Shown: positions 3,238 to 36,431 of the stretch, one piece after another
How positions within the stretch are numbered: position 1 is the first letter of the stretch
How the letters are laid out: each line of letters opens with the position of its first letter
Assembly (NCBI GenBank): GCA_008636045.1
Contig: SNRW01000042.1
Coordinates: forward strand, 1-36,539
Direction: 5' to 3'
From: Streblomastix strix
Taxonomy: Eukaryota
Length of the DNA: 36,539 nucleotides
The notes under the pieces: generated by a model
The model's database searches: none
Told to the model about the DNA's origin: nothing
Seen by the model: only the letters and a program-made list of their open reading frames with translations
Translations under genes and position numbers: made by a program

Positions 3238-4400
3238 TCTGTCTATCTAAATTAGATTGCGTTTCAATTCAGGTAACGGATTGTTACCACTTTAAGCAAA
3301 TATACAACTCCCAATTTATAGATAAACATCAATATTATTTGCTGAATTTCCTGTTAATAATATCAGTTGCGATGTTGAAGTAACAAAAAAATTATTCAGT
3401 TTCAAATGATCCATTCAATGTTTAGACCCTTCACCATTACATTAAATAATATATTTGATTCAGAATTACTATCGATTTATACATATTATCATAAGAAAGA
3501 GTTTTATCTTCTCCTACATATTGCGATTAAATTTATATATCATTTCCAAGAATTGTAACTGTATTAATATTGATCATAGTATCAATCATATCATTCTCTA
3601 GTTGAATCATGCTTTCAATGTCAGTAGTTGGGTTATATTATCCTTCAAAAAATAACAGAATGAGTAAAAGTAGGTAATTAATTGATCTGCATTGATTTGG
3701 TTTAATCAGTATAACACTCAATTAATTCCATTGTTATTTGATTAAAATTGTGATTATTTACCTGAATCTATTATATAATTTTCGAATTCGCTTATACATC
3801 TTTTAAATCATCAGAAATATCAGATTCAAATTAACTTGGTGAATATCTGCATTCCATTAGTAGTGATATATCAGATAATTCTGTATTATAATCTATGCTT
3901 CTTACATATTATCATCTAGAGTTTCCAAGACTGCATAGTTATCGAAGCTCATCTAATACAACAAATAATCCTTTATCTTCTTATTCTTTTTCACAATTTA
4001 TATATTCAATTTATTCAAAATTAGAACCATTTTTAATATTATCCCAGTTAATTCCAGAAATAAAGATTCCACTTCCATATCCTTTATGAATATTTATATT
4101 TTGTGGATTTAAAACAGAATGAAAATCAAATGTTGTACGTTAAACTGAAATTTAGCTCTAAGTTGTAAAATCAATATCAATATATATTCCTCCTCCTTTT
4201 CCATCTGATCTACAACAATTAATGAACGAATAGGAATTCTTAATAGAAAATTTATCTGATTACTCAATTGAAGTATAAATTTCTACTCAGTTAAATCCGG
4301 AATATTCAATCAGAGATAAAAAATTTATTTTTATTATTTCAGATCCAACAATAGCAAAAATTTCACTTTATGAACCTGATGTTATGCTTTAATATATTGA
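2290..4400 (-). pseudogene. Decayed GGAI/GGGIY-repeat (pectin-lyase/beta-helix-like) surface protein gene
   Basis: Minus-strand translation gives FINCCRSDGKGGGIYIDIDF (~4170-4230), GYGSGIFISG, RNDGGSALKTTI (~3040-3065), SGSGRAIK, NGGILD and NDDGIYA. It has frameshifts and TGA stops and is interrupted by a (TA)n tract. Confidence 0.5.
3192..3236. repeat. (TA)n microsatellite
   Basis: About 22 TA units seen directly. Confidence 0.95.
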
Positions 4401-5771
4401 GAAATAAAATTATGATAAAATATAACAGATATGTAATAAATAACATTTATAATATATAAATGAATAAATATCAGGGATATAACATATATTATACTAATTA
4501 TAAATAAGAATGTCAATATTTTAATAATAATTTTTGAATTATTCTTTAAATTTTAGTGAAATTATAAATTAAAACATTGTTTGTAAGGATAAATTGCCAA
4601 AATCATTTCCAATTTAATTTATATTAAATGGAAGTTAAATTTATAAAATAAATTAATGTTAATAATTATGTAAAAGTTATATGATCATTTACGTAAATAT
4701 ATTAAAAAATTTGATATGCGTATGATTAAATTACAAATTTATTTCTAAATTTTAATAATCGATTGTTGTTTGTGAATTTAAAATTATTAAAATTATTAAT
4801 TAAGTAACTTAATATATTTTTAAATGTAATATTGTAAAAATTATGTAAAATTACTCATAAAAAAATTTAATAATTTCTTTTTATCTCGATAACTAACTTG
4901 TTTATAATTTTTTTGAATTATAGAAAAGTTTTCTTTTCAATCAATATGTATAAATAGTAGTGAATAATGTCCGGAAAATCATTTTTAAATATCTGAATAT
5001 TACAAATATCTTAATTTCACACATAATGTATATGATAAATCTTGCTGTTTATTATAAATATTTCTATTTTATTAAGTTTTGTGTTTTAAATTTGAATTAA
5101 AATTTAAGTAATTTACTGTAAAAAAATAAAATATATATTTGAATTTTGATTTAAGTATCATTTTCAGCTAGAAAAATTTTGATTGAAAAAATTTACTTTA
5201 AATTTTCAATTAAATTTATTACTATCAGTTTAATTCAATGACACAAAAATTATTCATATTTTGTAGATAATTATCATTGCAGAATCTTTGAGAAAGAACA
5301 AGCCTATTCTGGGTAAATTCACCTTCACAATCTTCACTGAATCTACAATAATTTACTATAATCATATAATATTTAAAGTTATGAAACCTAAAAGTATGTA
5401 TTTTACTGCTGGTAATGTCAAACTTTACAGCAACTAAAAACCTTTCAAATTATGAACGAGAAACACGGTATGCACGGAGAGGATCGTAATCTATATGGAA
5501 TTCTTTAGTTTGAATGCTACAATAAAATCTTATAATAAAATATGAAATTTATAAATTAATTATTGAAAAAAACTGAAATAAAATATGAAAAATAAAAATT
5601 CTTGAATTAGATAAACGAAAAAAGGAAATATTAATCAATTTATAACAAAATGAATTTCGAAATAATTTTCATTAGTTTTTTAAATTATTAAACTAAATTG
5701 TATTTTAAAAATCGGTTATAGTTTTTATTTTACAGTTTGAAGCAAAATAGTTTGTTTAATACATAATTATG

Positions 5772-6200
5772 AGTAGTATATATAGAAAAATTTTGCCGTA
5801 AGTTCAAAAGCAATCATTTTCAAATCAAACTATCTGTGAAAATTCACAAAAAAGTAAATTGTTATACATATTAATTATTTTTAATTTATAACATCCAATC
5901 TTCCCCAAAACTACCGAATAAACGTTCATATATTCAATAAATGTCCATACAAAAATAAGAATGAATAAATTAATGAATATATTAACGATTATAATCAATC
6001 GACACGCATTAATACCAAAAACTACCGAATAAACGTTCATATATTCATTAATTGTCCACACTAATATGAAGCATGAATAAATCAATATATATATATATAT
6101 ATATATCCGGACACATTAATCCCAAGACTACCGAATAAAAGTATTGGAAAGCATTAATCCACAACGCTAAGGCATAACGTTAATCCTGTGTGCGGCTTCG
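5772..6200 (+). repeat. Putative left terminal (inverted) repeat region with ~110 bp subterminal tandem repeats
   Basis: AGTAGT at 5772. The core CTACCGAATAAA recurs at 5911, 6022 and 6128 (periods 111 and 106). The first two copies extend as ...CGTTCATATATTCA.TAA.TGTCCA.AC. An (AT)n tract lies at ~6086-6106. Confidence 0.65.
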
Positions 6201-6766
6201 GAGGTTTATTCAAAATTGTTTACGATTTGGACAAACTGCTAAAATAATTGTGGATCAATAATTGCATTGGTAATCCTTATGATTTATATTTCTTTATTTA
6301 TTTAACAACATCTTAAATATTATTATTTAATAAATGAATTTTCAGTTCTCTATCTGATTAATTCTTCTAAATCAAGATATGGATTAGTATAATTAATTTA
6401 TGGACTTTTATATGGTTTTGCTATTCTTTTTCGAACTTATTTCTTTGAAGGTTTTTCTCTAGCATCACTTATTGGTGTTTCTTCGTTTTCATTTTAATCT
6501 TCTTACGGCTCATAAGATTAAAAATCTTCATCATCGTCAGTTTATTTTTAAAGTTATTTTTAAACTTTTTTCTTTGGTTCAAATCCTCCTCCAAGGGCTT
6601 ATAACAATGACTTATTCAATTGTGTTTAAAATAATTTTTTAAGTGTCTTCTTTCCTTCTTCGAACACTTTAATATCTTTATTAATTCGTATTGTATATCC
6701 GATGTAAAAGTATTCAATATTTGTTCAATTCTCTATCATATTCTTTAAAGCGTGTTGTAAGTCCAT
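6200..6766 (-). pseudogene. Polinton hypothetical protein (charged), frameshifted
   Basis: ATG at 6766: MDLQHALKNMIEN*TNIEYFYIG...LQALGGGFEPKKK / DDEDFQSYEPQED...NYTNPYLDLEE. Has a stop and frameshifts; the 3' end is uncertain. Confidence 0.45.
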
Positions 6767-6822
6767 TTGAATATTTTTAAATTAGGAAAATGATAAAGGG
6801 CATAGAAAGAAATTCAATTCGC

Positions 6823-7513
6823 ATGTCAAAATCCAAAAAATAACTGATTGAAATTAAAGATAAAGAACTTACGGATGAAGATAAAAAAGATTTGCAATTG
6901 ATCGATGATGCAATTAGCAGGTTTAAGTCAATGCAATTCATCGATGAAATGACTAATCCAAAGGAAAATATAACTTAAATTGAGACTTAAATTATTACAA
7001 TAACACCTGAATGGATTGATCCTTATATAATTAAAAATTATTAAATATTAAAGTTAATAAAATAAAGATAAATATAATTAAATTGACCGAACAACAGCAT
7101 AAGTAGACCTTGAGGAAGTAGTTAAAAAAACTTATCTTTCTTATCCAAATCTTGAAGTAATGAAATTCATTATTGATCGAATTTAGGCTAAAGTTACTAC
7201 AAGAAAAATAGGTGAAGATTTTATACTTTCATCAGAGATTTTTTTTAAACTTTGATCAATACTTACTTAAAAGAATGAAGATGATATAGAAATTGCATTA
7301 GAAGAACCATTATTGAGATCCCATTCATGCATAAGTAAATCATATAAAAAGAAAGAATTAATAAGAGTAATGGATATTCTAATTAAAAATGTTAGTAAAT
7401 CAGTTATTGATAATAATTTTTTTAATTTTATTGAGAAACTGTATCGAATTAACAAGGACTTTGTTCGTTTATCAGATGCATCTACATAAGAGATAACAAA
7501 ATATGATTTTTGA
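6823..7513 (+). pseudogene. Polinton hypothetical protein, frameshifted
   Basis: MSKSKKQLIEIKDKELTDEDKKDLQLIDDAISRFKSMQFIDEM...TPEWIDPY with TAR=Q. It continues after a frameshift to a TGA at ~7513. Confidence 0.5.
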
Positions 7514-7560
7514 AATAACTTTTTTAGCTTTCTATTTTTTTTTACATTTAATTATTTTTA

Positions 7561-8800
7561 CTGACAACAAAATTGCTTGCACAATCTGTAGTAGTTAAAG
7601 GTAAATTACTTGTTCATCCTCATAATATACTAAAAGAAATATATATAGAAATTATATATTAATGTGGAGATGATTCCTATTAACGAACATTAAAAAAATA
7701 TAATAAAAATTACTGTAAGCTACTAAAACGATATGGAAATAATCTTAATTATCCATAATAAGTTTATATAATGATTGAGAAGAGAAATAATGACCATATT
7801 GATGAAATAGCTAAATAGTATACATAACAGATGAAGTATCTTAGAGAATACACATCTAATTATCCTATACGAAACTTTATTGAATATAAAGTAGTCAAAT
7901 ATAGCGAACCAAGATAAATAGTTGAATAAATGTAAGTACTTACAAAATATAATTAATACGGATAGTTTGAAGTTAAATTTGAAGATAGTAGTATAGTTTA
8001 CTATGTTGAAGAACGAAAAACCTATTATTTTTGTATAAAAAATGGATCAAAATTTTAGTGATTTAGATATAATCGATGAAGATGAATAGATTAATTAGTA
8101 AGAATAGATTAGTAAAATAATATAATAATAAGAAGAGTAATAAAAATAAATTAAAGAACGTAATACATTATTATAAGTTAATGATTATGAGATAATGAAG
8201 TACTTTAATTATTTGAGTTAATTCTTTAGGAATTCAGTCGATTTTATTAATTTACAAACCGGCTAGATTATTCGTGAAGTAAAGATATTTCTATAACCTA
8301 TCGTAGCTGGAAAATTTTTAAATAAGTTGGAATAAGTTACTAAATTCTATTAGCAAATGGAGATACTATTGGTAAAGATTAAATTGATTATGAACCGATT
8401 GGAAATTCACGTTACTCATCAATTACTTATGGAATGTATGAGTAATTAATTTTTGGTATTTTAACTACATAAAATAGTAGAGTATATATATCATTGAAAA
8501 TAACTCATTAAGATCCTAGTACAGTATGTTTATCAGCATATACTTTATTCTCAATCGTTGATAATCTTATAAAACCAAAATTTATTGGATCACCAAAAAT
8601 ACATACCATTAAATGCAGTTATGTTAGCGACTAAAGGTTATGGTTATCCAATGTTATGGAATGGATCAGCTCTTTTAGATTGTCATGTTAATCCTAATGG
8701 AAATGTTGCAATAAATACAATATGCTTACTTAGTTTACCTGATGATTTTTGTGTATAGGTTTGTGATTCATATGCTATTCATAATTATTCAGCAAATTGA
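7561..8800 (+). pseudogene. Polinton protein(s) with a fibre-like C-terminal part
   Basis: Long reading frame(s) with TAR=Q. QILLANGDTI (~8345) is followed by a beta-rich globular-like region (GYGYPMLWNGSALLDCHVNPNGNVAINT) and a TGA at ~8800. Frameshifted. Confidence 0.45.
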
Positions 8801-8968
8801 GTAATTTTAAAAATATTTAAATAGATGGATTCAATGAAACAATTATTTACACTCTTGATTAATTGAACATTAACTGGCACGCTATCTTTAAAACTATATG
8901 GGAAGCAGCAATCAAATATGCCTGTGAATCAATGGTATGTAAATGAAAAAGTAATTTATTTTGATAAT

Positions 8969-10953
8969 TCATTGTGGTTCAATAACTCTACCAGCAAGCT
9001 CCTCAATAACGCCAATATTTAGTACATAGGGTATTGAACTCTCATCAAATATAATTTTTGCAAATGCATCATATAAGTAATGCATCATAAGAGTAATTGA
9101 TGTTTTAGTAGGATCAGGATATGCTCTAGTTCCAATGAATTATTTGAAATAATTTTAGTTCTATGTTGGACTTATATTTGATGAATCAATAATTCCTTTA
9201 GTCAAATTTCCTTACAAAATCATTTATTTATTGGTTCTAAAACCTAGTTTTGAGTAGTTATATCCTCGCATAAATGAATCATTAGTAGTTAACTTCCATA
9301 TGAACATATATTTATTAGGATACAGTGTTTTAACAGCTTTACTTCCACTATACAATGTTGTTAAATAGAAAATGTTAGAAGTTTTTTATGTATGTCGGTA
9401 TTATCTATCCATCCATAGAAATGACTCTTATCATCAATATTCAAGATCTCGAATGTAATTGAATGATATAGATCTGATGGAGCACCAACAACATCTTAAT
9501 CAACGAAACAATCAATCATTTATCCATTATTTCCTTAATTTAATCATTAATATGGTTATGGGATAACATTATTCTAATCAATATCTAGATTAAGTCCTGT
9601 GAATAATACAGGGAAAAACCATGTTGAATATTATAGCATAGTAAATGTCATAAATAATGCCTTTATGTTAGAAAATGACATAATGCTTTATATTGATCCA
9701 TTTTCTTCATCAAATCCGCAAAATGGAAAGTTTGATGATTATTTTCTAAATACTTTTGTGTGAATGTTAACTATTTTTGTTATTTTATCATATTATTTAT
9801 AACTTCTTCATTTTTTATATTTTAGCATACGTTCTAAATCTCCAACATATCGAATTTTGTTGTACCAATCTAACTAATTGAATTTTGTGGTATGTTAACA
9901 CTGATAGTTGCATTTTACATATTTACTATTCTTACATTATATCTCTCATATTCAAGAGTCTTATTTACTTCTCCTATTTTAGCTAAAAGATATACAATAT
10001 CAGGTTTCTCAGGAGGAATCATATGATAAGTTAAATGATTATTTTATACAATATCATTTTTTTAAGCCAAACAACCTTTAAATCTTATAGGAAATCTGAT
10101 ATCTATAATTATAGATGTAATGTTGCATAATTACGAGTATGAACAGGAAAAAATTTTTATATAGGATTTAGTTAATTAAGATCAAGTATTTGGCAGAACG
10201 TTATATCTTAAGGGATTTTATAATAAAATGGTGTTGTAACAGTTTCAGCAGTTGCTTATCTATCAATTTCACGAAGTCGGATATCAATAAATACTCCATT
10301 ATGACGTTTTCCTTCAATCATACTTTCTAATGGTGAAACTCTAACGCTATTTTTAATGCACAAATCACTTAGAGAATTTCCACTAATTACTGCTTATTCT
10401 CTTGAATAGATTGCTGATCCATATAATGTTGTTGCATCTTTCAATTGGTAGAATTAATTGAATGGTCCGCACGCAGTTGAGAATCCAATCCATAGTTACA
10501 AATGACCTGACATTTCTCTTCCATCAGCTGTTTTACTATAATATTTTAATGTTGCTTATAACATTTATCGCCCAATCAGCTGTTGAATCTTCTTTACAAT
10601 TGAAATTAGTTCATGCATTTAATTTTGCAAGAGTATCTCATTCAATAGCTGTTTTATTTAATTATATAGCTAATGTTTGCTGGTATTACAATTGTCCAAT
10701 TTACTTAAAAAGTTTAAACAATTAAACGTGCAGATTTGTCTCTTGCTCCAAATAGTGTTCGAGTATATTTAACTCCACTAGATGTAAGTTCTGTTATAGA
10801 AGAATTGAAGAAATTTTGCTTTGATATTTCAAAGAATTGAGGATGGATAGATAATGATTTTAGAACTTCTCCAAGTTACATATATTCACCAACGTAATCA
10901 GAACGTTGCGAATTTGATAATCGTCCAAGATAATCACTAGATTTGATTGACAT
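8969..10953 (-). pseudogene. Putative major capsid protein (double jelly-roll type), frameshifted
   Basis: About 660 codons: MSIKSSDYLGRLSNSQRSDYVGEY...WIGFSTACGPFNQF...LDLNQLNP..FPVHTRNYATLHLQL...MMHYLYDAFAKIIFDESSIPYVLNIGVIEELAGRVIEPQ*. The call rests on size, beta-rich pattern and context, not on a search. Confidence 0.55.
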
Positions 10954-11019
10954 TTCATTGAAACAAAAATTAATGAAACGGAATGGATATTTATGTTAAA
11001 AGTTTATATAATAAATCAA

Positions 11020-11245
11020 ATGGGTTTCATCTCTGGAATAGCAGATTTTGGATCAAAAATATTAAGTGGCGTTAAGAAAGCTGCACAATGGGTAGCACCT
11101 GCATTACAAAAATTTTGTCAACAATATCAAGTCCTGTTGGAATGAATCATCTAGCTCTTGGAAATGCATTAAGTGCAGAAGCTAATGTCGCAGATGTTAT
11201 GGATCGACTTTTGAATAATGTTAATGTCAGCGTAATTTATTTTTG
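11020..11245 (+). pseudogene. Small amphipathic-helix protein, adenovirus pVI-like (membrane-lytic candidate), one frameshift
   Basis: MGFISGIADFGSKILSGVKKAAQWVAPALQK, then after a frameshift ILSTISSPVGMNHLALGNALSAEANVADVMDRLLNN. Confidence 0.55.
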
Positions 11246-11250
11246 TAAAA

Positions 11251-12888
11251 ATGAACGATTCAATATCACAACAATAAATCCAGACAGTTAGATAATTTAT
11301 CACTAACGATATAGCTTACTATAATCAATATTAGAAATAAGGTGGATCAAGTGGTGGAATTATGTCAAAGAAAGAGTAATAATTATTTATAGATAATGAT
11401 AATGCATTAATCCACGCTACTAATAATTAAATCGTTGGTGGAATGGCATTAGATTTTGCGTTGAAAATAGAGCCTAATGGTTTATTAATGATAAAAAAAT
11501 TGAAATTGATTGGTTTTGATTTTGTTGCTTAAATTAATTAGTTGATTAATTAAGTGAATTAATTATAATAATCTATTGGAACAACTGATTAGGATATATC
11601 TGATATAAAAAATGATATTGATACTATTAATCAAGAAATATCACGATAAATACATTTCCGATGATTTCATTTATTGAATAATGAAATATAAAATTTACCT
11701 AATTCCGCTAATGGATATTTTTCAATTAGTGCTGAAAGTGGAACAGTATGGATGTATGATTAAAATTGGTATAATAATGGAGATATTGTTCCAGATTAAA
11801 TAATGCTTGCAAGAGAAGCAGCCCCATTATCTGATGGTATAGCAATTACAGGAATTAGCACAGAATATTCACGTAGAGATCATATACATCCCCAAAAATA
11901 TTACAACTTCTGTACCGCCAAATGAATCTGCTAGTGATTCGGTAGGCACAACAAATTATTATGCAAAAAACGATCATTCACATCCTCTCAATATAACAAC
12001 TTCAATATCTCTATAAGATAGTGTTGGTGGATCGGTTGGTACACCTAATTATTATGCTAGAAATGATCATTCACATCCAATTGATTTATTGAATAATATT
12101 TCAATAATATAAATAGTTAATGGTGTTTGTGCTAATGGAACATCTGCTTTTTACGCTAGAAATGATCACGTTCATCCATAATAATTGACATATTATGGTA
12201 TATTACAGCAACTAAGTTCATTAAACTAAAAGATTAGCAATTGAAATATTATGTGCTAATGGAGATTCAAAGTCTATATTTGATTTTTGTAATGATTTTT
12301 TTTATTAAAACAGGAAAAACGTTACAAGTAGTATAAGGATTATTACATTATGGAGGATAACCAGATAGTAATGATGATTATCAAACTAGAAAGTAAATAT
12401 ATTAGTCATATGTTAACAAAATATAAACGGAGACAATTGCTGGAAAAAAAATTTTCAAAAACAAATAACTTGAAATATAACAATCAGGATCAACTAATAC
12501 ATTATTGTTGTTCAATAAAAATAGTAATTATTTTTGAATAATTAGTTAATGATGATCAAATTGTTACGCTAATTAATTATAGTGGATCTAAACAACTACC
12601 AAAATTATATATATATTTAAATTTCAGAGATACATGTTTAGCATCATAATATTCAAAAATTAAAATACCAAAAAGATTTGAATTAAATACTGGAACAGCT
12701 GATTCATTCGCAGGAGTTACTTCAAAGTTCATAACAGGATAATTGGCAATTTATGCACTTCAAGTAACATTGTTAATAATCCGTTAGGTTTTGTAATTGT
12801 ATTGACATCTGAAGCAAATTATACGACTAGAGGATTACGCATATCTCCTGATGGAAATACATTAACGTTCAATGGTAGAAAAGTTTGA
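11251..12888 (+). pseudogene. Tail-fibre-like protein with YARNDHxHP repeats
   Basis: MNDSISQQQIQTVRQF..., a coiled-coil segment (DISDIKNDIDTINQEISRQ), four repeats YSRRDHIHP/YAKNDHSHP/YARNDHSHP/YARNDHVHP, then ITATKFIK...EILCANGDS, ending GLRISPDGNTLTFNGRKV*. Has frameshifts and a TGA. Confidence 0.65.
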
Positions 12889-12968
12889 CTTAATCTTCGA
12901 TTGTGGTTATAATTTATTTTAACAACTTAATTATTAGATTCTTTGATTATATAAAAAATATAAAAACA

Positions 12969-13410
12969 ATGAACCTAACCGATCAAACAATTTTTCAATG
13001 AATTAGTTAAATAGCACTTTGAAGATAACGATACAATTAAAGTTACAATTGAAACACTATAAAACAAGATAAAAAATGATGTAAAAGAATTAATTCATCC
13101 ATTAATCTAAGAATTAATAAGAATCAATAAAATGTTCACTAATCAATAGCAATAATTATAAAATATAAAGAAAATAGTTGATGAAGAAGATTATAAAAAT
13201 AAGTTGTTTAATGAATAGAATAAGAACTTCAAAAACATGTATGTTTTAAATAAAAAGTCGTTAGATCTTAATAATTAACCATAACTTATAAAGAAGTACA
13301 TTATCCCTGAAGTTAGTGAAGATGAAAAATAGATTTATAATTAATTTGTGAATGATGAATAATACAGTAACTTTGTCAATTATTAATAATTTAATTTAAA
13401 ATAATAAGAC
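12969..13410 (+). pseudogene. Polinton hypothetical coiled-coil protein
   Basis: ATG at 12969, with an early frameshift, then ELVKQHFEDNDTIKVTIETLQNKIKNDVKELIHPLIQELIRINK... The end is uncertain. Confidence 0.4.
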
Positions 13411-13419
13411 TACAGAGAT

Positions 13420-13799
13420 ATTCTATGTTTTTGATTTTATCTTTAATTTCATCTTGGATTGGTTCATTGAAAGTATAATGTTTCATGAATTATTAATACA
13501 ATTATTTTTCTTATTAACCAAAGTCATTAATCATGTTTAGCGCATCGAATATTTTGAATGTTTTATAATCAGTAGCATTATACTATAAGTCAATATTTGT
13601 AATCAACTAGTAAAGTTATTCCATTTCAAAAACATCAAACAATTTATTTGTTTGGATAATTTAACATTTTATGATATAAGATATATCTTCAATGAGTTGC
13701 TATTTCCAAATCTTTATTTGATATTGCTTCGTTCAGAAATGCTTCAATTTATTCTACAGATAGCTATGACCAATGTATATGAGGTTATTTCTTGTCCAT
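13420..13799 (-). pseudogene. Polinton hypothetical protein
   Basis: MDKKQPHIHWSQLSVEQIEAFLNEAISNKDLEIATH*... Coding-like with TAR=Q; the end is uncertain. Confidence 0.35.
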
Positions 13800-14018
13800 T
13801 TTTCTTTTGTAAAAGAATTTTATAATGCAAATCGTTAAATTTAATGTAACTAATACTATATCAGAATAACTCTATAATGTTTTTATTATATTAATTGTAT
13901 CCAATAATTTATCAGAAATTGATACAGAAATAATTGATGTAATAAAAATTTTCACTATAGAACATGTAATTCATTATCCCAACGATTACTGATAATACAT
14001 TCATTTATTTTTTTTAAA

Positions 14019-15035
14019 ATGTCACTACTTGAATAATAAAATATATCATTTACGAACTAAGATCTATTAAATGAACATAAAACTAAACCATTAACGAAGA
14101 TTTCATTGTTCCTTATTAAAGGAAATCATTATATTGTTGGAGCTGTTTGAAATGGTAAAACAACATTAATTTGTATGTATGTTGTGATATAGGAAAGTAA
14201 TCGATCTTTTCATATTGTACTTCTTATATTGTGGTGCGGATGAAACTATGACATTAAACCTAAATAGTAAGAACATTTAATTAGTGAATGTAAATTATGG
14301 AGAAGCAATGATATTTTAACCTGAATTTTGTGATATAAAATACTCAACTAAGGAGAAGTACACTTGGTACAAAATGAATAAAAAAAAATAATCTTATACT
14401 AGAGATTTAATTATGCGAATGGAAGAACAAATTTTATAAGCTAATGAGATTAAAAAGAATGAAAAACCTTATGATTATCTTAATGAAATTGCTGAACTAT
14501 TCAAATAAAAAGTAATCGAAACCATTTAAATATATAGCTAACCTACAATAATATTGAGATTCGATATTTCTGCACTAATTCAAAACGTTAGTTACTAAAA
14601 GAAATACAAAATTACTGATAAAACATAAAATGCTGACATTAAAATAATGAAAATACCTATATCATAAGAAGCTTAATTACTTAATACGTTAATGCTATTT
14701 GATGATATTGGATCTAATGCAGATATCAGAAGAATTAGTTCATAACTATCTAAAGCAATAACACATCTTGTTTGTGATTATCATAATTCAAAAATACTAT
14801 TTACTTTATAGCTTAACGTCCAATTTATTTGTTCAAGACAGCGAGGATATTAACCCATGTAATTTGCTTAGGGGTGAATTTAGGTGAATCTGATCTAAGA
14901 TAAGTGTACGATGAAAAAACCATATAAAATTTAGATTTTGATGAGTTATAATTACTGTACTATACATTAAAGAAACATGAGTCTATCATTTTAAACAAAT
15001 GGTTAGAAAAATTTTGAGATTCTCAAAAATAAATG
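14019..15035 (+). pseudogene. A32-like (FtsK/HerA) DNA packaging ATPase
   Basis: Walker A HYIVGAV*NGKTTLI (Gly replaced by TGA at 14148-14150). Walker B TLMLFDDIG (~14690-14710). Downstream FIAQRP.YLFKTARILTH motif after a frameshift. Confidence 0.85.
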
Positions 15036-15064
15036 AAATATTTGGTTAATGCTCTGCTAAACCT

Positions 15065-18000
15065 TCACTCATATGAATAATACTTAGCAGCTAATCCATA
15101 CATATAAGGACAGTTTGATTGATTCTCTAGCACTATCATTTTTGTGCGAATTCCTGCGATTCCATTTTTCATTATTGATAATTGGCTTATCTAATGATTC
15201 TTCTATCCTAAACGCATATTAGTGCATTTCGTTATCTTACCTTCATTAAAGCAATCGATTATCTGGTCTTTAGTGATTTTGTTAGTCTTCTAAATAACTG
15301 CTTTTAATTTTATTTTTGAATCATAACAATAATTCTTAAATATGATATAATTTTTAAGAGCTATTGCAATCATTGTTGGACCTTGTCGTTCGATTGCTAA
15401 TACAAAGATTTTCTTCTCATCATAAACATCTCCTCTAATCGTGGGGAAGAAATATTTAGCATTCTCATTAAAAAAATCTCTGTTTTTAACTATAGCATCA
15501 AATTACTAAGTACAATCTTCATTAGGATTTCCACTAATTGGCCAATAAGCTGAATCAGTACCTCCTTCAATAAAATGTATTTTATCCATGTCTAAGTTTT
15601 TATACATGATGTTCTATATGAAATTTAGATGCCAATATTTAGCATTATCTAATACGAAGAATGCAACTTATAAAGAAGTTTTACAACTGCAATGATCAAG
15701 ATTCATTTATACAAAATATCTATATTCAAATATTTTTTGTTCATCCATAAATGCTTTAGATCTAATTGCTCTTTCTGTTTACTTCTAATTTATTATTTTA
15801 ACTTTTTGATATTTCTCTGTATTCATTCCATCACTACCATAGGAACTATTCATAACTATCTTAAAGAATTATTCCTATCCCTTATTCCCATATAATTTTG
15901 CTTCAATTCTGTTTTTAGTAAATTCCTTAATAAACGAATTGAATTATTCATGTTTATTGAACATTATCATCTGCTTTTCATCATCTATAATAAAATGGCA
16001 ATCTTCAATTAAGAACCATAAATAGTCTGAACTAAATGTCATGAATTCTCCCATAATTGATGATGATAGATTAGTTAACTTTCTTTATTTTTATTCAATC
16101 ATAATCTTATTGTCTTTCATGTGATAGAACTTATAAGATCCGATAGTTTATTCATCAGTTGTGAATACATAATTCCTTAGAAAAGGTGGAAATTGATGAA
16201 ATCGTTAACAGCAACGATGCTGGCACCATAAGTGCTAATGTAATTCTCATCAATATGACCTTTAACTTCAGCAATGAGCAATTAGCAATCTTCTGTAAAA
16301 AAAAATTATTAATTATTCTAAATATTGTTTATTTTGAATGTTCAGTATTAGCAGAGCTCAAACCTTCGGTTTCTCCCTCAATCTTTCCTGTTTATGATCC
16401 ACACATATACATTTAACCTCCAATGTATTTTATAAATTAATGTGGCTCTGATGACATTACACTACGATATAAAGAATTAAAATCAACACCAACTATATGA
16501 GTAATTCTATGATCATTTGTTAAAACTGTTACTTTTTTTCTTCTTTACTATAATATAATCGTTTATTAAAATCAATTCTTGATACATTATCTCTATGCAT
16601 TGTATTTGATAATCCACCTGTGATCCATTTTTTGATTAAATGATACTCATCAATATCTGTTAGATTATTTGGTAAACGTCTTAATATAAAATATTTAAGT
16701 AAATAAGTGAACAATTTACTTATGTTTTTATCTTTGTTTGAACTAAAGCAATTGCAATATTTACATCAAAACTAAACATTATCTTTTGAATGACCTTTAG
16801 AATTATTGATTTTATCTAATGACGGTTTATTAGAAAAAGTGAATTTACATCCACAAATTCTGCAATTAGAATCTTTGAATAATTGTTTGAAATAATTGGA
16901 ATCACTGTCTTGAACATTATTTGTTGTGTCTCTTTTTTTATGTTTATCTTACGATTGATATCCTTTCACTTTATTCTACCAATAGTTCTCAGTTAAATAA
17001 AATTTCTAGTATTAATCTTCAAAATTAGGATATATTCCATTTATATCAAAATCCTCATATGCTTTAGCATATTTAATAGCATTAGAGCATGCTGCCATAC
17101 TCATGAAACTAAACATATCAATCTTATATTTAAATTATAGGCTAGTTAATGTCATTAACGGTTTAATCATTATAAAAATTTATAATTCATTAAAGTATTG
17201 AAAATAATCCCATCTATTTTAAACAGTTTTTCATCATCTAGATAAATCTAATAATCCTTCTAACTAATTTTAATATTCTTCAATGATGAATAGAAATCCT
17301 CCATCGTAAATGGTTTTGATTTACTTAGTACTTTATTAACGTTATCAGTGTTGAAAGATTAATAAGAAAACAGACCTTTATTTGTCATCAAATTCATCTC
17401 TAAAATCTTTAGCTGCTTATTTTAATTCCATTGGTTAAAGATACGTTAGCGTATCAACAAATTTCATCTTTAAATTTGATTTCTTATAATGTACAATTAT
17501 TTGCTTAGCTGTTAAAGGTCCACCAGTATAATTACTGATTGTCCAATCTATTCATTACATATATTATATAATTAATGACATATCAAACCTTGAGCTATTG
17601 AATCCTCTTATTGGTACTTCTATTGAATAAGTAATTGTTTCATCAATAGTGCAGACTTCTGTAATATATTGATTATCAGCATTAATTTATTCAGCTTCTT
17701 AAAACAATCAATGTAGTCATTAAGCTAAAAATTACCTCCATCTTACTAACTAAAGAATATCTTCTTAATTCCTTATTTGTTACGAATAGTTGATGCAACA
17801 GATAAAGATAAAAATTCATACATTTTATAGTTTGATTTACAAAACTTTTTATTAACGATTTTAGGTACTGTTTTAAGATCGTATGTGATGATGTATTGTT
17901 TACGTTTATATTCATTTTATCTTCCATTTGCTAGTACGTATTGATAAGTTTTGTTCTACATAATGTAAGGAATAAATTTCTTTTAGATTTAATCCAGTTT

Positions 18001-19740
18001 TAACTTTCTTTACAATTTTTTCATCATTATTCTCACATTTAATAATATGTTTCTCGTAGTCTTTTGAGTAATTTCTATCTTTAGGATCGAACGCTTTTGA
18101 GTTACAATGTGGACAAAATTTCAATCCCGTTAATGCTTATTTATTAGCTATTGCGAAAGCGTGAGAAATCTTATTCTCTTTTCATTCAGATTCAACAGCT
18201 AATATATCAATAATCTTAATCTATGAATGTAGGGTAGTTTTGTTTATTCTAAGATTTCATTTTAGTAGAATATCTACAGTCCTCTAAAATAATTTTTTTT
18301 GTTCATTATCGTAATAGTAAATGCCTTAATTAAATTTTAAATTGTATTATACAATATTAGCGTATTTAGTTATTTCTAATCCATCAAATACTTTCAAAAA
18401 ATCTGTCGTTTTTCTATTCTTTGAATCGAATGGTAGCTTTAACACTTAAACTAAATAATCTCTACTAATGCTAATAATTGATTCACTTTTATAACGTTTC
18501 TCATTTATGTCAGGATGTAATGCTTTAGCTATTGCTTCCAAAACATAATTGTTAATATTTCCTGTAATTTCATTGATAACATTTTTATGATCATTATAAT
18601 AAAGATCGATTAATTATTTCATACTATCTTCCACAATTTACGGTTAAAGATTATATGTTTTGATTAGCATTGAATAGATAGCTATGTATCGTTATCCTGT
18701 CCTATCTAATTTATAATTTTAAATATTAATTATCTCAACTTTAATGTATTGTTAATATTCTTCAAAATCTTCATCAAATTATATAACTTTTGGAGCATGT
18801 TCTTGTATACGAGTATCTCTTAGTAATATATATCCATAATCAACGTAAACGAAATCGTACTAATCATACCTATATTCTTCATAAATGACTCCAAAATTGA
18901 ATTGTATCTTGAAAGCTTAATGGTGATCTTCTATATAAACTTTATCAACAAACTATTCAATATCTGATAATGATTATATAACATTATTATAATGTAATTT
19001 GCTTTGTTATCCATTAGCTTCTGATTAAGGAATTACACATTCACAATCAAATCTTTATCTTGCTTTACTAATTTTAGCAATAAATCATTCCATATTATCA
19101 AGGAGAAAATATAATAAAGCACCTGCATCATTATCTATTTCATTAACATTTTATCCATTAAACTTGTTAATTTTATCAATAATCTCTATATTTTGCTTGG
19201 AAGTTATTTTGTATTGAAGATTCGCTTTATATTCTTCATCATAATTCTTTAAGCTTACTCTTGTTCTTTGATGATATAATCAGTCCAGAATTCATTAGCT
19301 TTTTATTGGTTTTACTCTCTACGATATTCCTAAAAACTTAATTCATATTAATTTGAATTTTAATGAGATAAATCTTAGTGTAATTTTCGATTCTATTCAC
19401 ATAAACCATCATAATATACATCTTTTTATTATTACTATTATTCTCTACGATACTCTTATAAATCTTAATTATATTGATTCTATTTGAAATGATTAATCAT
19501 ATCTTTACCTTTGAAGGCATCAGAGACGCTTGTTTTAATGATTTACTGATTGTATTAATGTATCTATTTTAGATGTACTTTCAAATCATTGTAGTTACTT
19601 CTTCCTCGTTTCTTAAAATTAATTTTGTCTAAATATTCATTAGGTTAATTTTTAAGTTAATTTACATTTAATGATTCTTCAATGTTTTTGTTGCTGATTT
19701 TTAGCAATTTAATTAGCTATGCTTTCTTAACGTAAGACAT
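15065..19740 (-). pseudogene. Protein-primed family B DNA polymerase (Polinton pPolB)
   Basis: ExoII-like RGFNSSRFDMSL (~17575-17610), motif A VGVDFNSLYRSVM (~16460-16495), motif B KIVMNSSYGSDGMN (~15820-15865), motif C IEGGTDSAYW (~15545-15575) and LKNY. A zinc finger CPHC...YEKHIIKC lies at ~18035-18120. Several frameshifts and stops. Confidence 0.9.
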
Positions 19741-19773
19741 TTGTTTAAAATAAAAATTATTATTTTAGACAGA

Positions 19774-20725
19774 TCATTAAAATTATATCTCGAGAAGTAA
19801 ATTATTATACATATCCATATACAGCATTGGTATCTTTCTTCTAAAATTATCATACAATGTAAAAACTAACGATTTGATCTATCCAACAAGACATTACTAA
19901 CTCATCATATTCACTCCCCATAATACTGGTGCATCAATCAAATTCTATTTGAAACATACATTAGAGAATCCATTATCTCCTGTTAATAATAACATTATTC
20001 CATGTAATTAAATACATACACAAATTATCAACATTTATGGATATTCTAGAAAAAATCCCAATATATGAACAGAATATTGGAATATCAAATTCTAAACTTT
20101 CATTATCATGTTTAATTTAATAGAACCATACTTCGAGATTAATTTTTTTAAAAGCTGATGATAAATTAACAAATTAATTGGCTCCATTCTCGTTCTATCC
20201 ATCATATAGATCTTATGCACCAAATAACTGTACGAATGGATTTGGAGATAGTAATTTACGATTTGCAAACCAATAAATTTTATTTTATTAACAATAATTA
20301 GTTGCAACTTATCGAATTAATTATCCATAATAATTAGTTCTTCTAACTGCTGTATAAATACATTCCCATTCTCTAACACAAAGTGCAGGCAATGAATTGA
20401 TAATCCTCACAGGAAATGTGTTGATATTATTGATGATTTATTGCATTGTTAATTGCTATACATTAATTGGTTAAGAATCGGAATTTATAAATGTTCCATT
20501 AGCATTTACATCAACTTACTTACCGAATAAGTATCTTATTGATAATCCATTTTCTTAAGTAAAATGTTTAGGTTCTATTGATGTTATTAAGTTATTTGAT
20601 GCAGGACAATGCAATCGGATTAATCCAATCATTCGATATAACTCATTTACTGTTGTATCTAAAATCCAATAGTGAAATAGAAATGTATTAACTCCAATGA
20701 TAATATAATTGATAGCTGAATTCAT
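19774..20725 (-). pseudogene. Putative minor capsid (penton, single jelly-roll) protein
   Basis: About 315 codons, MNSAINYIIIGVNTFLFHYW... The C-terminus VGQIKSLVFTLYDNFRRKIPML...NLLLEIQFQ* resembles the I-x-x-L-x-F-x-L-x-D-x-x-G-R-x-I end pattern of Polinton/virophage minor capsid proteins. Confidence 0.5.
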
Positions 20726-20759
20726 TAAATCTTATCCTTAATTTTAGTTTAATGAGAAT

Positions 20760-21610
20760 ATATTATTTTATAATTTTTATACGAGTTCATTCGTAGAATT
20801 ATTAAAGCATATCGCTTCATTATTCAATGTTGATTATGGTCTAAAATATTTCTCTGTTGTATCTGTAAAATTATCATATTATGCAAATGTTATAAACAAT
20901 AATTATGGGGTATATTTATATCCTTATATAGTTTAATCGCTAGTATGAGCATTATTAATGGCAGTATTTAAACTTATACGTATTGGTGGTAATCTGTCTT
21001 GTAGTTAACAATGAAATTAGTCCTCACGAATTTATTTTTAGAAATAGATTTTTCGTTATTCTGTTGATTCAATATTACGCTATATTTCTATTGAATCATT
21101 GATCAAATAATTTAATAAATTAATTAGAATGTTATTGATATTATTAACTTAAAAGCTTTAACTTCTGCAAGGGATAGTCGTTTGCCATATTACATAATCC
21201 ATATCTGAATCAGAGTTGATAATTTGTAATCCAATATTAGTCGTTTCATTGAAACAAAAATAAACTTCATGCTCTTTCATTTAAATACTATATCAATTTC
21301 ATTACTGCTGATTAGCAGTTCTCCGATGATATTTCAATAATTTCTTTTAATTATTCCATCTTATGACGTTTATTGAATTATCTTAATATAAATCTCAATT
21401 TTATCTCGGGAACACTCTTTGTCGCTCGTGATATAATTTAGCTCAAAAATGCAGCATAGGTCATAAATTCTTCACAATTTATTTTTGTTATATTTTTAAT
21501 CTAGAAAAGTAATTTCATTTCAATAAAGTAATTATTATCAAAATGCTAGAGATGATAATCAGTACGTCCCAAAAGCGTTGCTGTGATTTCTTATTTGGTA
21601 TTGTTTCCAT
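20760..21610 (-). pseudogene. Polinton hypothetical, possibly capsid-related structural protein
   Basis: EITATLLGRTDYHLQHFDNNYFIEMKLLFQIK...DRLPPIRISLNTAINN...YKYTPQLLFITFAQYDNF. Frameshifted. Confidence 0.4.
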
Positions 21611-21647
21611 TTGTTTATTACTAAAATATTAATTAACTGTAATTAAA

Positions 21648-22680
21648 ATGTCATAACGTGAAGTAAAAACAAAAAAAGATAAATCAGTAGATACAAAACG
21701 ACCTAAAGGACGACCTAAGAATAAATCAACTGTAGCTAATGTAATCGAAAATATGTTTTTAAAGAAACGTTTTACACATTTAGGACAAACTGCTAATTCT
21801 TAAAATATAGCAAAAGATCCACAAATTTTAAAGAATTTGGGAAAACTTTAGTTAGCTTAAAGTAGAATTAAATAGTCAGATTATTCAGCTTCATTAAGGT
21901 AGATAAATCAAACTGATAATAGAGTTTCAGCTCATGAAGCCGATGCTGGAATATATGGATTAAAAGGTAATGTTAGAAAAGAAAGAATATAAGGATCTTA
22001 TGACCCAATGGGATCAGTGCATGAAGCTAATTAAACAAAATAAATGGTGTAGCAGTTTTTTAGTACCATAATAGATGTAATCGTAATATGAAGCAAATTA
22101 CAATCCTTATTTAAACATCAATAATCGATTACATTGGTCATCATAGCAAGAGCCAAATAAAATTGCAGCATCAACTCCTGATCGAAATATATATGATAGT
22201 GATAACGGAAGAATGGAAAAATTTGGAGGATACAATCGTTTCAAAATATAACCTTAAGTGAATTTAAATCTTTACTCTCAAAACACAGATTAATAGACTG
22301 GTTTTGCTCCATAAATTGATGCTCTATAGTAAGATATCGAAAATGAAAAGGAATAAGATTAAGAAGAATAAGAACTTGAAGAAGATAATGCACAAACCAA
22401 TAGGGAATTATTTTATATTGGAAAATTGAATTGGGGATAAGAACCAGTGAATTCTCACTATAATAAAAGATCAATTTCCCACATTAATGATTTTAATTGT
22501 AGAGTAATTGATTAAGGATTATCTGAATATCAAAAGAAATAACCTATGACAGAAGAGGTATAAACAAATCAACCAAAAAAGTAAAAAAAATATTTATCCA
22601 ATAGAGAACTGAAGAGTACATTAAAAGTATAAGCAAATCTTAAAAATAAAGTTGGACATAAATCACACAAGAAATGAAAT
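21648..22680 (+). pseudogene. Basic AT-hook-containing protein (candidate virion core/DNA-binding)
   Basis: MSQREVKTKKDKSVDTKRPKGRPKNKST... The frame is open for more than 130 codons with TAR=Q and frameshifts later. Confidence 0.5.
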
Positions 22681-22705
22681 GATCAAAGATTGGGATCGTC
22701 AATTA

Positions 22706-22960
22706 ATTGAGAAATTTACTTAAAATTTCATCTGATATTAATGTTTTATTAAATATATCTATTATTCTTGACTACAAAATAGAGATTTATTCTTTAAATT
22801 ATTTTTACTTTAAACGTTATTTCTACTTAGCTTCACTCTATTATTTCTTAGCCATTTCTTATGCTTCTTATTCTGTAAAATATTTCTTTGGTCTACCAAT
22901 CTTTTATGTAAGTTTTATGTTTTCTGTGTCTATTTATTTATCTAGAAAAAATATCTGACT
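22706..22960 (-). CDS. Small basic GRPKK-motif protein (separate gene or integrase tail)
   Basis: DKQIDTENIKLTQKIGRPKKYFTEQEAQEMAKKQQSEASQKQRLK...SDEILSKFLN. The start is not resolved. Confidence 0.4.
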
Positions 22961-24045
22961 AATTTAAAAGTTTACTTATATTTATTCTTTAAAGTTCCAA
23001 TTTCATTTGCAACCTTATTGGTATAACAAATTGATACTTCCACAAATTTAATAATATTATACGGTTTCAATAGTTCACAAACAACATTTCCATGCTCATA
23101 TTTTAAAAATGTTACTATTTCATTAAATTTTCTACGTTATTTATCAAATCCATGAACAGTCTTTTTCTAAATCAAGATGAATAGTTATAATATTACAATT
23201 CTTTAAATCAAGTTATTTATCTTTATTTTATAATTCCTTTACATAAGTTAATTCCTTCATTTTATATTTAATGTACATTTCTTCTAAATCTTCATTCTTA
23301 TTTACTTATTTAGGACAGAATTTTTATTTAAAAGCATTATATTTTGAGTTAATATAATCATCAACAACTTATTATAATTATTTATTATTAGCCGTTAGTT
23401 AAGGAACTTTTTCAAACGCATTCCTTATCGTTCTAACTACTGAATCAACTACTCTATTTTTATTAACGAATGGCGAAGAATTATAGAAGTATTTTATGTC
23501 ATTCTCTTTTAAATAATCCTTAATCTATTTACTTCCCAACGCTGATTCACCATCAGATCTAAAGTTGCTAATAAGTTAATTAGATTTTAATTATTTGATA
23601 CACTTTAATAGTTCATTTGCTGATTTATCTTTAATTTGAAATACTACTAAGTATTTAGTGTAAAAATTAATATAAAATAGATATTATTGAATTACTTTAT
23701 TAATTATTGAATGCTTTATAAATATTATATCAATTTCCCAGCTCCATAACTTAGGTGAAAAATATGGTCTTTGATACTTCTTTAACGGTTTCAATGTAAA
23801 ATCTTATACTATATCGAGTTTATCCTTAACTTTGCTCCTAAAAGGATTCTTAATTCTCTATAGATCCTATTAAAGCATCGTTTTTGCTTTTAGTTTTACG
23901 TTTGATTTTATTCATTCAGCATGATACTTTTAAAAATTATCATGATAAATCTTATAACATTAAGAAATTATTTAATCTTCAAACTATTCCTCTAAATTAT
24001 TGAATGTTAGATTACTATTAATCTTGGTTGTTTCAATTTGTTAAT
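22960..24045 (-). pseudogene. Retroviral-type (rve) integrase of the Polinton, N-terminus truncated
   Basis: KYQRPYFSPKLWSWEIDII...YLFYINFYTKYLVV..IKDKSA...NFRSDGESALGS...NSSPFVNKNRVVDSVVRTIRNAF...YINSKYNAF. Confidence 0.85.
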
Positions 24046-24229
24046 AAAATATATAAAATAATAATAATAATATAAAACTGTTTATTCATTTCATTTAAAG
24101 ATATGAAAAAAATTTTCTAGAGTAAAAACAATATTGAAATGAAACACACACTATATTTAAGTCAAATGTGATTATGATTTGATTAAATTAATATAAAAAT
24201 TTATTAATAAACAATAACAACTAAATTTT

Positions 24230-32567
<8,338 letters not shown>

Positions 32568-33009
32568 GTTATACTTTTTTGAGTTTTATTATTGTTTATA
32601 GTTAAAATTGTATTTAAATAGCATTATTAATAAACATATTACGAGATAATAATATATGTACTCATACTATTTGCGCTCTTATCGGATTTTTATTTGTAAT
32701 TGTTTAATCTCAAGAATTTGAATTAAAAAATTCATTTTGATTAAATTTAAAATATGCTAAAAAATGTTAAATATTATATGGTTCAAAGAATAATATTATT
32801 TTTACTAAAGCACGCTAAGATATTTAGCGTTGAAGTATCAAATCCAGTTCATCAGTTGTATTCTAACATTTGCATTTAGCAACATGCTTGGTAATGCAAT
32901 CTTATAATAAATAGTAAAAATTATATAAAATACATGTTTCATTGTTAATGAAATGAATTTTTTTTCCTTTTTATTTCCTAACTATTTTTTTGTCACAGGG
33001 ATCATAAAG
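32568..33009. promoter_or_regulatory. Divergent intergenic region / putative bidirectional promoter (PAP <- -> V-ATPase D)
   Basis: 442 bp between head-to-head start codons. Inferred from gene geometry only. Confidence 0.45.
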
Positions 33010-34104
33010 ATGGCCGAGGTTACATTTTTTTAATTAAATTATATTTCCCTATAATTCTAATATAATTATTCTATCATTTTAACCGGTGTTCTCTCAGTAA
33101 GTCCTACCGACTCGTATGGTCCTACAGGGATAGAAAGCTAAGCTAGTAGCTGCTAAAAGAGGCCACGAACTGCTTAAGAAAAAGAGTGATGCACTTAGTG
33201 TTAGATTCCGCGAAATATTAGGGAAGATAATGGATGTTTTGTAAATTTTTTAATTTTTTTATTCTTAACTTCTTGTTACTCCAATTATTTGCAAGGCAAA
33301 AAATTAAATGATAAGCTTAGTTGACGATGCAATGTTTTCTACAACGTAAGCCAGATTTATAGCTGGGGATAATATAAAGTTTGACGAATTTTCCACCTTT
33401 TTTTTCTTTAATTGTTTTTCCTCAAAAAAACTCACTATTATATTTAGATACTAAGTTCTAGAATCAGTATCCAATTCAACACCAACAAAGATAAAAATGA
33501 GAATGGAAAACATTGCTGGAGTTCTTCTACCAGTCTTCGAATTGAGTTAAGAAGGCCAAACAAGTTTGTCCTATTTTTAGGCTTATATACTTGAATTTTT
33601 TATTAATTTTAAATTGAATTAGATTAAGAACTTACTGGTCTTTCAAAAGGTGGTAAGCGGGTATAAGAATGTCAGCAGAAACACATGCAAGTACTTGAAT
33701 AATTAATCAAATTAGCTTCACTTCAAGTATGAATTATAAATAAATTTATCTGTAATCATTTTAATAATTAATTAATCACTGATAACCAGACAGCATTTGC
33801 TGCGCTTGATGAAGTCATCAAAGTGACTAACCGAAGAGTGAATGCACTTGAATATGTTATGATACCCAGAGTTGAAGCAACAATACATTATATTGAATCT
33901 GAGATGTCAGAAGCTGAGCGTGAGGAGTTTTTCAGACTAAAGAAAGTATAGAATACTAAAAAGAAGAAGAAGTTGATATAAGAGGAAGAGGCTGCCTAAT
34001 TACTTGCTGCTTAATCAGGTCTTGAGAAAGGAGCCTAAGGAACAGCACAACCACAATAGGCAGAAAGTCTAATAGCTAGCAATGATGATGATGTTGTTGT
34101 ATGA
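33010..34104 (+). CDS. ATP6V1D: V-type proton ATPase subunit D, 254 aa; introns 33019-33097, 33236-33295, 33379-33447, 33564-33622, 33727-33789
   Basis: [36 protein letters not shown]...[12 protein letters not shown]...LTGLSKGG...[32 protein letters not shown]...[12 protein letters not shown]...NDDDVVV*. Spliced length is 765 nt (255 codons). Confidence 0.95.
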
Positions 34105-35262: not shown

Positions 35263-36431
35263 TTCTTAAACAAATGAAAAAAATAAATGCAAATAAAATA
35301 AGCTATTTATAATAATTAAATTTTAATGATGTTTAATTCAATCCGCAACCACAGTGGTGTAAGGAAATGCAATTTTTTATTTTTGTTTCAAATTCGCATG
35401 TATAGTAATTTTAAACGTAATCATTTTATCAAATTAATTGATTATTTAATTATATATGTTGATTAATCGAAAAAATGAATAAAATACATTAGTGAAATTA
35501 AAAGTTTTTAGCTATTTCACCATTCTGAGATTTTCATAATATATAATTCATAAATATTATATTGTTAATTATTATATATTTTTATAATATAATTCATTGG
35601 TTAAATTTTAAAATATTTTATTAGTTTTTATATTTTAATTCTCTTATAGCTAAAAGGTACTCTCCAGAGAAAAAAAATAAAAAAATATAATAATTTGCCT
35701 TAGGCCTGGGTAAAAATGACAAGCTGACAAAGAAATTTTTGTCCGCCAGTCAGTATGAAATTTGTTTGTCTTTACATAAAAAATATTCGAGAAAATAATG
35801 AAAATCATATTTTTTTTGGTATACTATGAATATTCATTTGATTCAAATTTATTATTTTCAATCAATATATATTAAAGACATTATTTTTAATAAATTTAAA
35901 AATACTAATGTAATAGTAAGTTTAAAGAATAAAAAGTTAATGATTTTCGTAATTTTCCATAAATATTTGTGACAATAGAAAAAATTCTTTCACAATTAGC
36001 TTATGAGGTGCAAGTTGAATTTAACCTTAAACAGAATTCTGATAATAATTAATCACATAATAATTGTGAATTTCCAAATTCGGTCAAAAAACTTACGCCA
36101 CTCGCCATCAAATAGATATTCATTATATTTAAGTTTTTTTTATTCAAATCTATATACTTCATATAAATAATATTAGAGAGATTCATTTAGTATTTCTTCA
36201 GTTTTTCTTTTTCAATCATATTCAAAAAAATTTATGCAAATTTTATTAGAATTTCATTATTTTTTTGGTAATTTAATTTAATACTAATTTAGACTTTCCT
36301 CTTTTCTTTCCTGATTTTTGATCTTTTTTTCTCTTTTTTTTAATTCTTTCAACTATGGTTGAAATATAATTTTCTTTATATATTTCAGCCTTATTTCCCA
36401 ATAATATATTTTGACAGCGCCACAGTCTATG

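Follow-up and report, generated by a model that had tools for sequence, protein, structure and literature searches.

A probable dead copy, truncated on the right, from a high-copy family of Polinton/Maverick-type viruses adapted to the genetic code of their host, in Streblomastix strix

A single Polinton gene set lies between position 5772 and about position 24045 of a 36,539-nucleotide stretch of the Streblomastix strix genome (assembly GCA_008636045.1, contig SNRW01000042.1, positions 1 to 36,539), which is called the window hereafter. Each hallmark gene of the set, i.e., those for a DNA polymerase B that is primed by a protein (pPolB), an rve integrase, a packaging ATPase and a major capsid protein (MCP), is present once, and all four were found by translation with genetic code 6, in which TAA and TAG (together TAR) specify Gln. 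The initial annotation of this DNA had proposed an endogenous Polinton-like virus here, and its identity as a Polinton/Maverick-type element is borne out by the gene set, by the fold of the MCP as established through a relative, and by the code. The locus is very probably a dead copy, lacking its right end, from a high-copy family of Polinton/Maverick-type DNA viruses that are inserted by an integrase, are replicated by protein priming, form capsids and are adapted to the host code.

The extent of the element is evident from the summed depth of contigs of a termite-gut run (run X1), a measure that does not equal copy number. Between 6128 and 24055, this depth was 1,128-54,294 per bin, as compared with 47 (4800-5463) and 66 (24056-24700) in the flanks and 233 in the edge bin 5464-6127. 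It shows that the stretch belongs to a family repeated many times, and its edges lie near the coordinates originally given, 5772 and 24045. The left coordinate agrees, moreover, with an AGTAGT that begins at 5772 and is followed by three ~111-bp subrepeats with their core at 5910, 6021, and 6127. We take AGTAGT to be a Polinton terminus, and the left end of the element is likely to lie exactly there, judging from the sequence. Exact low-depth contigs of run X1 cross both junctions (4904-6349 and 24018-24379). A right terminal repeat was not found, and since the inverted partner of the left end is absent within the window, the copy appears to be truncated on the right. Over a short length, 7907-7978 resembles the inverse of 23970-24029 (E 0.01); this AT-rich similarity was dismissed as chance.

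The presence of a single terminus, a depth minimum at 21400-22727, and a gene order unlike that of L001, a related locus, would also fit a composite that arose when two related elements were nested or recombined. However, no hallmark gene occurs twice, comparison of the window with itself revealed no duplicated block, and gene models of S. strix join neighboring genes in the order that they have in the window, i.e., P0009 (the small helix gene discussed below plus the MCP), P0140, and P0154 (the likely penton gene plus pPolB). A composite is, therefore, very improbable, and the locus is treated below as one decayed element.

Relatives of the element are found in the same organism. All 90 matches of the MCP in a first search, in which the frame at 10022-10828 served as the query, were S. 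strix protein models with up to 77% identity, and 8 of the 32 pPolB matches were S. strix proteins, in keeping with S. strix as the most likely host. Some of the S. strix capsid proteins in NCBI are already labeled as major capsid protein by UniRef. In a JGI scan, 193 pattern matches led to 3 loci; scans of IMG/VR with three queries yielded no relative.

Comparison with relatives indicates that TAA and TAG encode Gln in the genes of the family, as had been claimed. In a non-circular test, 25 pPolB relatives from outside Streblomastix were aligned to the codons of the window. Among 490 pairs with TAA/TAG in the window, the relative had Gln in 89, and among 220 pairs with CAA/CAG it did so in 30, as compared with 1-3% for seven other codon pairs. 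Nine sites have Gln in at least half of the relatives, and the three near-invariant ones (19/19, 22/24, and 17/18) are TAG, TAA, and TAA in the window. The label "standard code" of these environmental proteins is based on long uninterrupted reading and low Gln content, with the DNA itself checked for L001 and L002; the standard code applies to L001, where TAA or TAG ends 9 of the 13 genes checked. The Gln content of pPolB is 6.4% in the code-6 proteins versus 3.0% in the others. TAR accounts for 70-84% of all Gln codons across seven segments of the element and for 78-83% across three frames of the host.

The TAA and TAG codons might instead be stops gained during the decay of a standard-code virus, and at numerous TAR codons, relatives indeed carry Lys (79/490 pairs) or Glu (43/490), each one base change away. 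Opposite CAA/CAG, however, the share of Lys and Glu is similar, and the invariant Gln sites are TAR. Furthermore, 43 of 58 TAR sites in pPolB and 31 of 45 in the MCP correspond to Gln in further copies from S. strix and are hence inherited, an argument that is partly circular as those proteins are code-6 translations. Provided that the alignments are right, the test with 25 relatives refutes the explanation by decay, the probability of which we consider practically negligible. In a tree of the C-terminal part of pPolB (32 rows, P0121 with 121 residues covered being omitted; midpoint root), the seven code-6 rows lie on one side of a branch with 100/99 support, among environmental rows, which is compatible with, though no proof of, a single code switch.

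Long reading frames in code 6 are more frequent than by chance. In this code, 26 stop-to-stop frames of at least 200 aa were counted, whereas 100 Markov shuffles gave 9.3 ± 2.9 (maximum 17). When frames down to 100 aa are included, the count is at chance level (96 versus 87 ± 6 in the shuffles), because TGA is the only stop, and these were discarded as evidence. The proposal of genes that are open under code 6 was not confirmed: the MCP, pPolB and ATPase genes are interrupted by frameshifts and TGA even in that code. In the standard code, 7 of the 25 frames of at least 80 aa in the window are located inside the element, and those across the MCP and pPolB genes run on the opposite strand. This suggests, as the initial annotation held, that standard-code calling of open reading frames misses the element.

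For pPolB, the code-6 translation of 15068-16120 matches the Pfam family DNA_pol_B_2 (PF03175) with an E value of 6e-08, above the cut-off. The protein has motifs A, B, and C as well as Exo II, and is 75-77% identical to three S. strix models. It carries an HNH/EndoVII insert; EndoVII was detected in the relative P0092 (E 1.3e-12), and 28 of 32 relatives show the HNH pattern. In the region expected from the TP-vOTU-Exo-Palm architecture, a strict pattern located a Cys motif in about 6 of 32 relatives, and the window carries Tyr at the corresponding place. The integrase matches Pfam rve at 23147-23878 with an E value of 9.8e-05, which is below the curated cut-off, and has D61, D120, and, at the expected third acidic position (35 residues past D120), Asp156. 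By eye, protein-like sequence of the integrase runs on past 23147 in another frame. The ATPase is similar to those encoded beside the MCP in L001 and L002 (E 2e-05 and 7e-07), with 30% identity to the former over 272 columns; the L001 ATPase in turn matches a packaging ATPase in PHROG (E 1.3e-05). The Pfam A32 profile did not match the window ATPase, and assignment to the A32-like subtype, for which its context argues, should be considered provisional.

Four S. strix references align over their whole length to the MCP of the window with 50-70% identity. As the latter lies in six pieces, the intact relative P0045 (50% identity across 637 columns) was folded in its place. The model, with P0045 leading 52 rows that included environmental relatives, had a pLDDT of 77.5 and a pTM of 0.84. 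In a Foldseek search, all PDB rows listed were double-jelly-roll MCPs, with those of mavirus (E 9.9e-12), PBCV-1 (2.2e-11), and Sputnik (1.3e-10) among them, and in BFVD, capsid proteins of virophages, adomaviruses and nucleocytoplasmic large DNA viruses (NCLDV) were matched. The MCP family of the window is, as modeled through this intact relative, a double jelly roll, in agreement with the jelly-roll capsids that had been postulated. Sequence searches of the PDB with MCP, penton and helix-gene queries returned nothing of use. Two S. strix MCP models, P0050 and P0067, are fused to an HNH_3 domain, which suggests that a free HNH gene may be located beside the MCP gene in some copies.

A second capsid protein is the likely penton. 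The gene has 36 relatives, most of them fragments, and weakly resembles a gene for a 701-aa protein in L001 (E 3e-05), with which it shares a C-terminal motif. The Atlas clusters nearest to this L001 protein (0.91-0.92) are viral, with V18-19 on 10% of the members in one and DUF5901 on 13% in another. V18-19 is presumably the Sputnik penton.

Further virion proteins had been proposed, i.e., fibers, a lytic peptide and a core protein. The first 31 aa of a small Met-Gly gene are 84% identical to the N terminus of P0009, and the amphipathic helix they encode is real, with a hydrophobic moment of 0.58 that was reached in 5 of 10,000 shuffles. The product is a candidate membrane-lytic protein, which we assume to resemble adenovirus pVI; in the literature searched, no paper connected adintoviruses with an amphipathic or protein VI-like product. 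The composition of another gene, together with repeats that we take to be of fiber type, suggests a fiber, and a gene with a basic N terminus, for which scans of Pfam, NCBIfam, and PHROG gave no match, may at a guess encode a core protein. An adenovirus-like maturation protease was not matched by fragments in the same scans, in which fragmentation or loss of the right end could hide one. The case for the unusually rich virion module of the initial annotation is weak: the MCP is shown, the penton is likely, and the helix is real but its lytic role putative, whereas fiber and core protein are suggested by composition, and the protease was not found in these scans.

The copy is a truncated set of pseudogenes rather than an intact hidden virus. 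Relative to all four references, the MCP gene contains five frameshifts and three in-frame TGA codons (10638, 10611, and 9544). The pPolB gene is interrupted by at least seven frameshifts, of which seven were seen against more than one reference, and by four or more TGA codons, the ATPase gene by a TGA within Walker A and frameshifts, and the penton-like gene by one frameshift. The residues that face the TGA sites of the window in other copies are Trp, Cys, Arg, and others. In the pPolB tree, the end branch of the window measures 0.24, as compared with 0.02-0.08 for the three nearest S. strix rows, two of which are partial. A 682-base contig of run X1 without differences (depth 13.7) spans 10110-10791 and, with it, two frameshifts and two TGA codons of the MCP gene. 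These breaks are present in the reads of run X1; since the run may stem from the source sample, the contigs place them in its reads but do not provide a second, independent sighting.

Alternatively, the provirus could be intact, with the breaks and the lost right end being artifacts of an assembly in which similar copies were collapsed. The depth within the element, up to three orders of magnitude above that of the flanks, would favor such collapse, and for other protists, polishing eliminated false stops (Bellas et al., 2023, PMC10120064). Yet, locus-specific contigs with a depth of 7-19 and 0-1 differences cover seven places, including breaks in the MCP gene and both junctions, although an eighth listed piece has 14 differences. 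In addition, many letters of the window are unlike those in nearly all other copies, which is the opposite of a false consensus and is in line with the long end branch. An intact provirus is, therefore, very improbable.

Several points nevertheless weigh against the interpretation of the locus as a dead Polinton copy. No target-site duplication, which in Polintons measures 5-8 bp, was found in the window. Run X1 is possibly from the same sample as the window and hence not independent; none of its contigs covers the whole element, and some of the breaks lie outside the exact ones listed. Where short reads are assembled into repeat-rich sequence, stops are frequently artifacts (Bellas et al., 2023, PMC10120064), and the reference proteins from S. 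strix stem from gene models, which may be faulty themselves. The longest S. strix pPolB found has 928 aa, as compared with 1,477-1,529 aa in several relatives, and none is full-length. Finally, an initial model of the MCP family, built from 47 S. strix rows headed by P0012, had a pLDDT of 47.7 and no Foldseek match, and its best VIA score (Z 4.6) was to unrelated folds. This model was dropped as poor and replaced by the P0045-led one with its more varied rows.

The life history of the family can be outlined from established Polinton biology. The rve integrase of a working member would insert the linear genome of ~19-20 kb into host DNA, pPolB would copy it by protein priming, and the ATPase would pack it into a capsid composed of double-jelly-roll MCP and penton, with the fiber, helix and core genes presumably contributing to the virion. 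As the proteins would be translated on host ribosomes, the virus would have taken on the host code. The present copy would then have decayed neutrally after insertion.

The features of the element are listed in Table 1. About 15 packed genes had been reported; we count ~16 gene-like units and, at the end, a fragment, with those without homologs read by frame scoring and translation alone.

Table 1. Features of the element between positions 5772 and 24045 of the window
Feature	Position	Strand	Basis
Likely left terminus, AGTAGT plus three ~111-bp subrepeats	5772..6142	+	Sequence; terminus inferred
About four frame-shifted gene-like units, one on -, three on +	6150..8950	.	Frame scoring and translation; no Pfam family at cut-off
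MCP pseudogene, ~650-aa family, double jelly roll	8969..10953	-	S. strix references; fold of relative P0045
Small Met-Gly amphipathic-helix gene, frame-shifted after codon 31; candidate membrane-lytic	11020..11230	+	Likeness to P0009
Fiber-like gene with several frameshifts, a coiled coil and YAxxDHxHP repeats	11250..12900 (about)	+	Composition, translation
Two gene-like units, first + then -	12970..14000	.	Frame scoring and translation
Packaging ATPase pseudogene, TGA at 14150 in Walker A, Walker B MLFDD, frameshifts	14019..15030 (about)	+	Similarity to L001/L002 ATPases
pPolB pseudogene, HNH/EndoVII insert before motif A	15065..19740	-	PF03175, S. strix models
Minor capsid protein, likely the penton; a single frameshift near 20056	19774..21280	-	36 relatives, L001 701-aa gene
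Small gene-like unit	21270..21550	-	Frame scoring; P0140 N terminus matches 21399-21485
Gene with Lys/Arg-rich N terminus, one frameshift; possible core protein	21648..22677	+	Frame scoring and translation
Short basic gene-like unit	22700..22900	-	Translation
rve integrase; frame ends at 23147	22990..23915 (about)	-	Pfam rve, motif spacing
Gene fragment at truncated right end, without terminal repeat	23920..24045	-	Translation

The flanking DNA carries host genes in the same code. At 24230-32637, on the minus strand, a poly(A) polymerase (PAP_NTPase, E 2.7e-46) is followed by long Gln/Asn/Ser-rich frames at 28030-30093 and 24230-27979, the latter with a 43-unit AAT array; all of these could belong, as exons, to a single very long gene, and the stretch ends ~190 bases from the broken right end of the element. 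Further on are a V-type ATPase subunit D gene (ATP-synt_D; 33116-34104, plus strand) in several pieces, which is probably split by introns, a lysine methyltransferase gene (34231-35262, minus strand; Methyltransf_16, E 3.3e-16), and a weak match to the dimerization domain of hAT transposases (35548-36219, minus strand; E 0.033), possibly the remnant of a DNA transposon. To the left of the element, a decayed retrotransposon-like remnant in code 6 at 1400-2500, with a weak RT_RNaseH match (E 0.067) at 1870-2121, has a GC content of ~35% as compared with 20-28% nearby. In single-copy DNA at 3431-4309 (minus strand), there is a frame-shifted protein-like stretch with GGGIYI-type repeats and no family match.

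The kind of element described here has been published before. Endogenous viruses of S. strix were reported to use the host table with TAA/TAG as Gln, with 820 MCP hits in this species, i.e., 5.4 per Mb, in one cluster (MMN, MCP cluster 40; Table S4 in Bellas et al., 2023, PMC10120064). In the literature searched, this was the only report for Streblomastix combined with Polinton, or with virus and integrase, and none was found that joined oxymonads with endogenous viruses and Mavericks. Thus, of the divergent, code-adapted lineage initially proposed, the adaptation stands, but the novelty was overstated in view of that study and of the proteins already in NCBI. The family resembles the MMN (Metamonada) viruses of S. 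strix and parabasalids in the likely host, the code, the high copy number and a double-jelly-roll MCP that is structurally best matched by MCPs of virophages. The S. strix example in that study has, judged by eye, a motif pattern of its N-terminal barrel in common with P0045, as a distant relative might. In contrast, the S. strix MCPs of MMN are ~560 aa long and 30-35% identical to a Trichomonas vaginalis MCP (DUF4106), whereas those here are ~650 aa. Cluster 40, which includes the T. vaginalis DUF4106 MCP, was defined by 25% identity over 30% of the length (Bellas et al., 2023, PMC10120064). DUF4106 was matched by none of 47 members of the present MCP family and none of six environmental relatives, which sets the family apart without direct alignment to the published sequences, and trichomonad proteins were absent from the matches of the MCP searches. 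All six locus tags of the family that were searched for are absent from the portion of the supplement covered, which does not include the S. strix rows of Table S5; conversely, 15 tags noted from that supplement are absent from the matches here, with overlap possible through those Table S5 rows. Dataset S1 of the same study names five S. strix locus maps, which lie outside this comparison and bear on any claim of novelty.

There is about an even chance that the family constitutes a second, uncatalogued Polinton lineage of S. strix, with a 650-aa DUF4106-negative capsid protein, an HNH-bearing pPolB, a pVI-like helix gene, depth at the level of repeats, and one code switch upon entering oxymonads, with environmental sisters in the standard code. 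If so, it would be a natural case of a virus lineage that crossed a genetic-code barrier and doubled its Gln content. Standard-code sisters such as L001 then allow a before/after comparison of a virus adapting to reassigned stops. L001 (889-13454) contains genes for an MCP, an ATPase, three paralogous proteins of 200 aa, the 701-aa penton-like protein, and a 542-aa fiber-like protein, in an order unlike that in the window; neither pPolB nor integrase is present in the 13.5 kb examined. The locus itself is one fossil among very many, and its concealment suggests that standard-code surveys miss such elements.

Mavirus-type virophages share the combination of rve integrase and pPolB with the family, and the mavirus MCP was the best PDB match of the model. 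However, the identity was 8-9% with a TM score of 0.40 by query, and the PBCV-1 and Sputnik MCPs score about equally. Unlike in mavirus, pPolB here keeps exonuclease motifs, and neither helicase nor protease was seen. The likeness to Virophaviricetes in the MCP is, without a sequence match, at the level of the fold, which is common to NCLDV MCPs.

With Maverick/Polintons (Polintoviricetes), as defined in two preprints (10.1101/2023.08.22.554363; 10.64898/2026.06.19.733378), the family shares pPolB, rve integrase, ATPase, a double-jelly-roll MCP, a likely penton and a size of ~18-20 kb. It differs in that the adenovirus-like protease was not found in the scans of fragments and that the MCP has no family match. 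Trichomonad Polintons could not be placed in any group (10.64898/2026.06.19.733378), and class membership is therefore provisional here too; the family may add a second metamonad Polinton lineage to a group without a place in current schemes. The polymerase of Polintons has been described with the architecture TP-vOTU-Exo-Palm (10.1101/2024.03.18.585575), and HNH was reported to be unique to pPolB2 of oomycetes and nematodes by Jeong et al. (10.1101/2023.08.22.554363), who do not mention Streblomastix in the text and supplement searched. Like these pPolB2 proteins, the polymerase of the present family contains a PacI/EndoVII-like HNH domain, which may or may not stem from the same event, and the range of HNH-bearing pPolBs would thereby be widened past oomycetes and nematodes.

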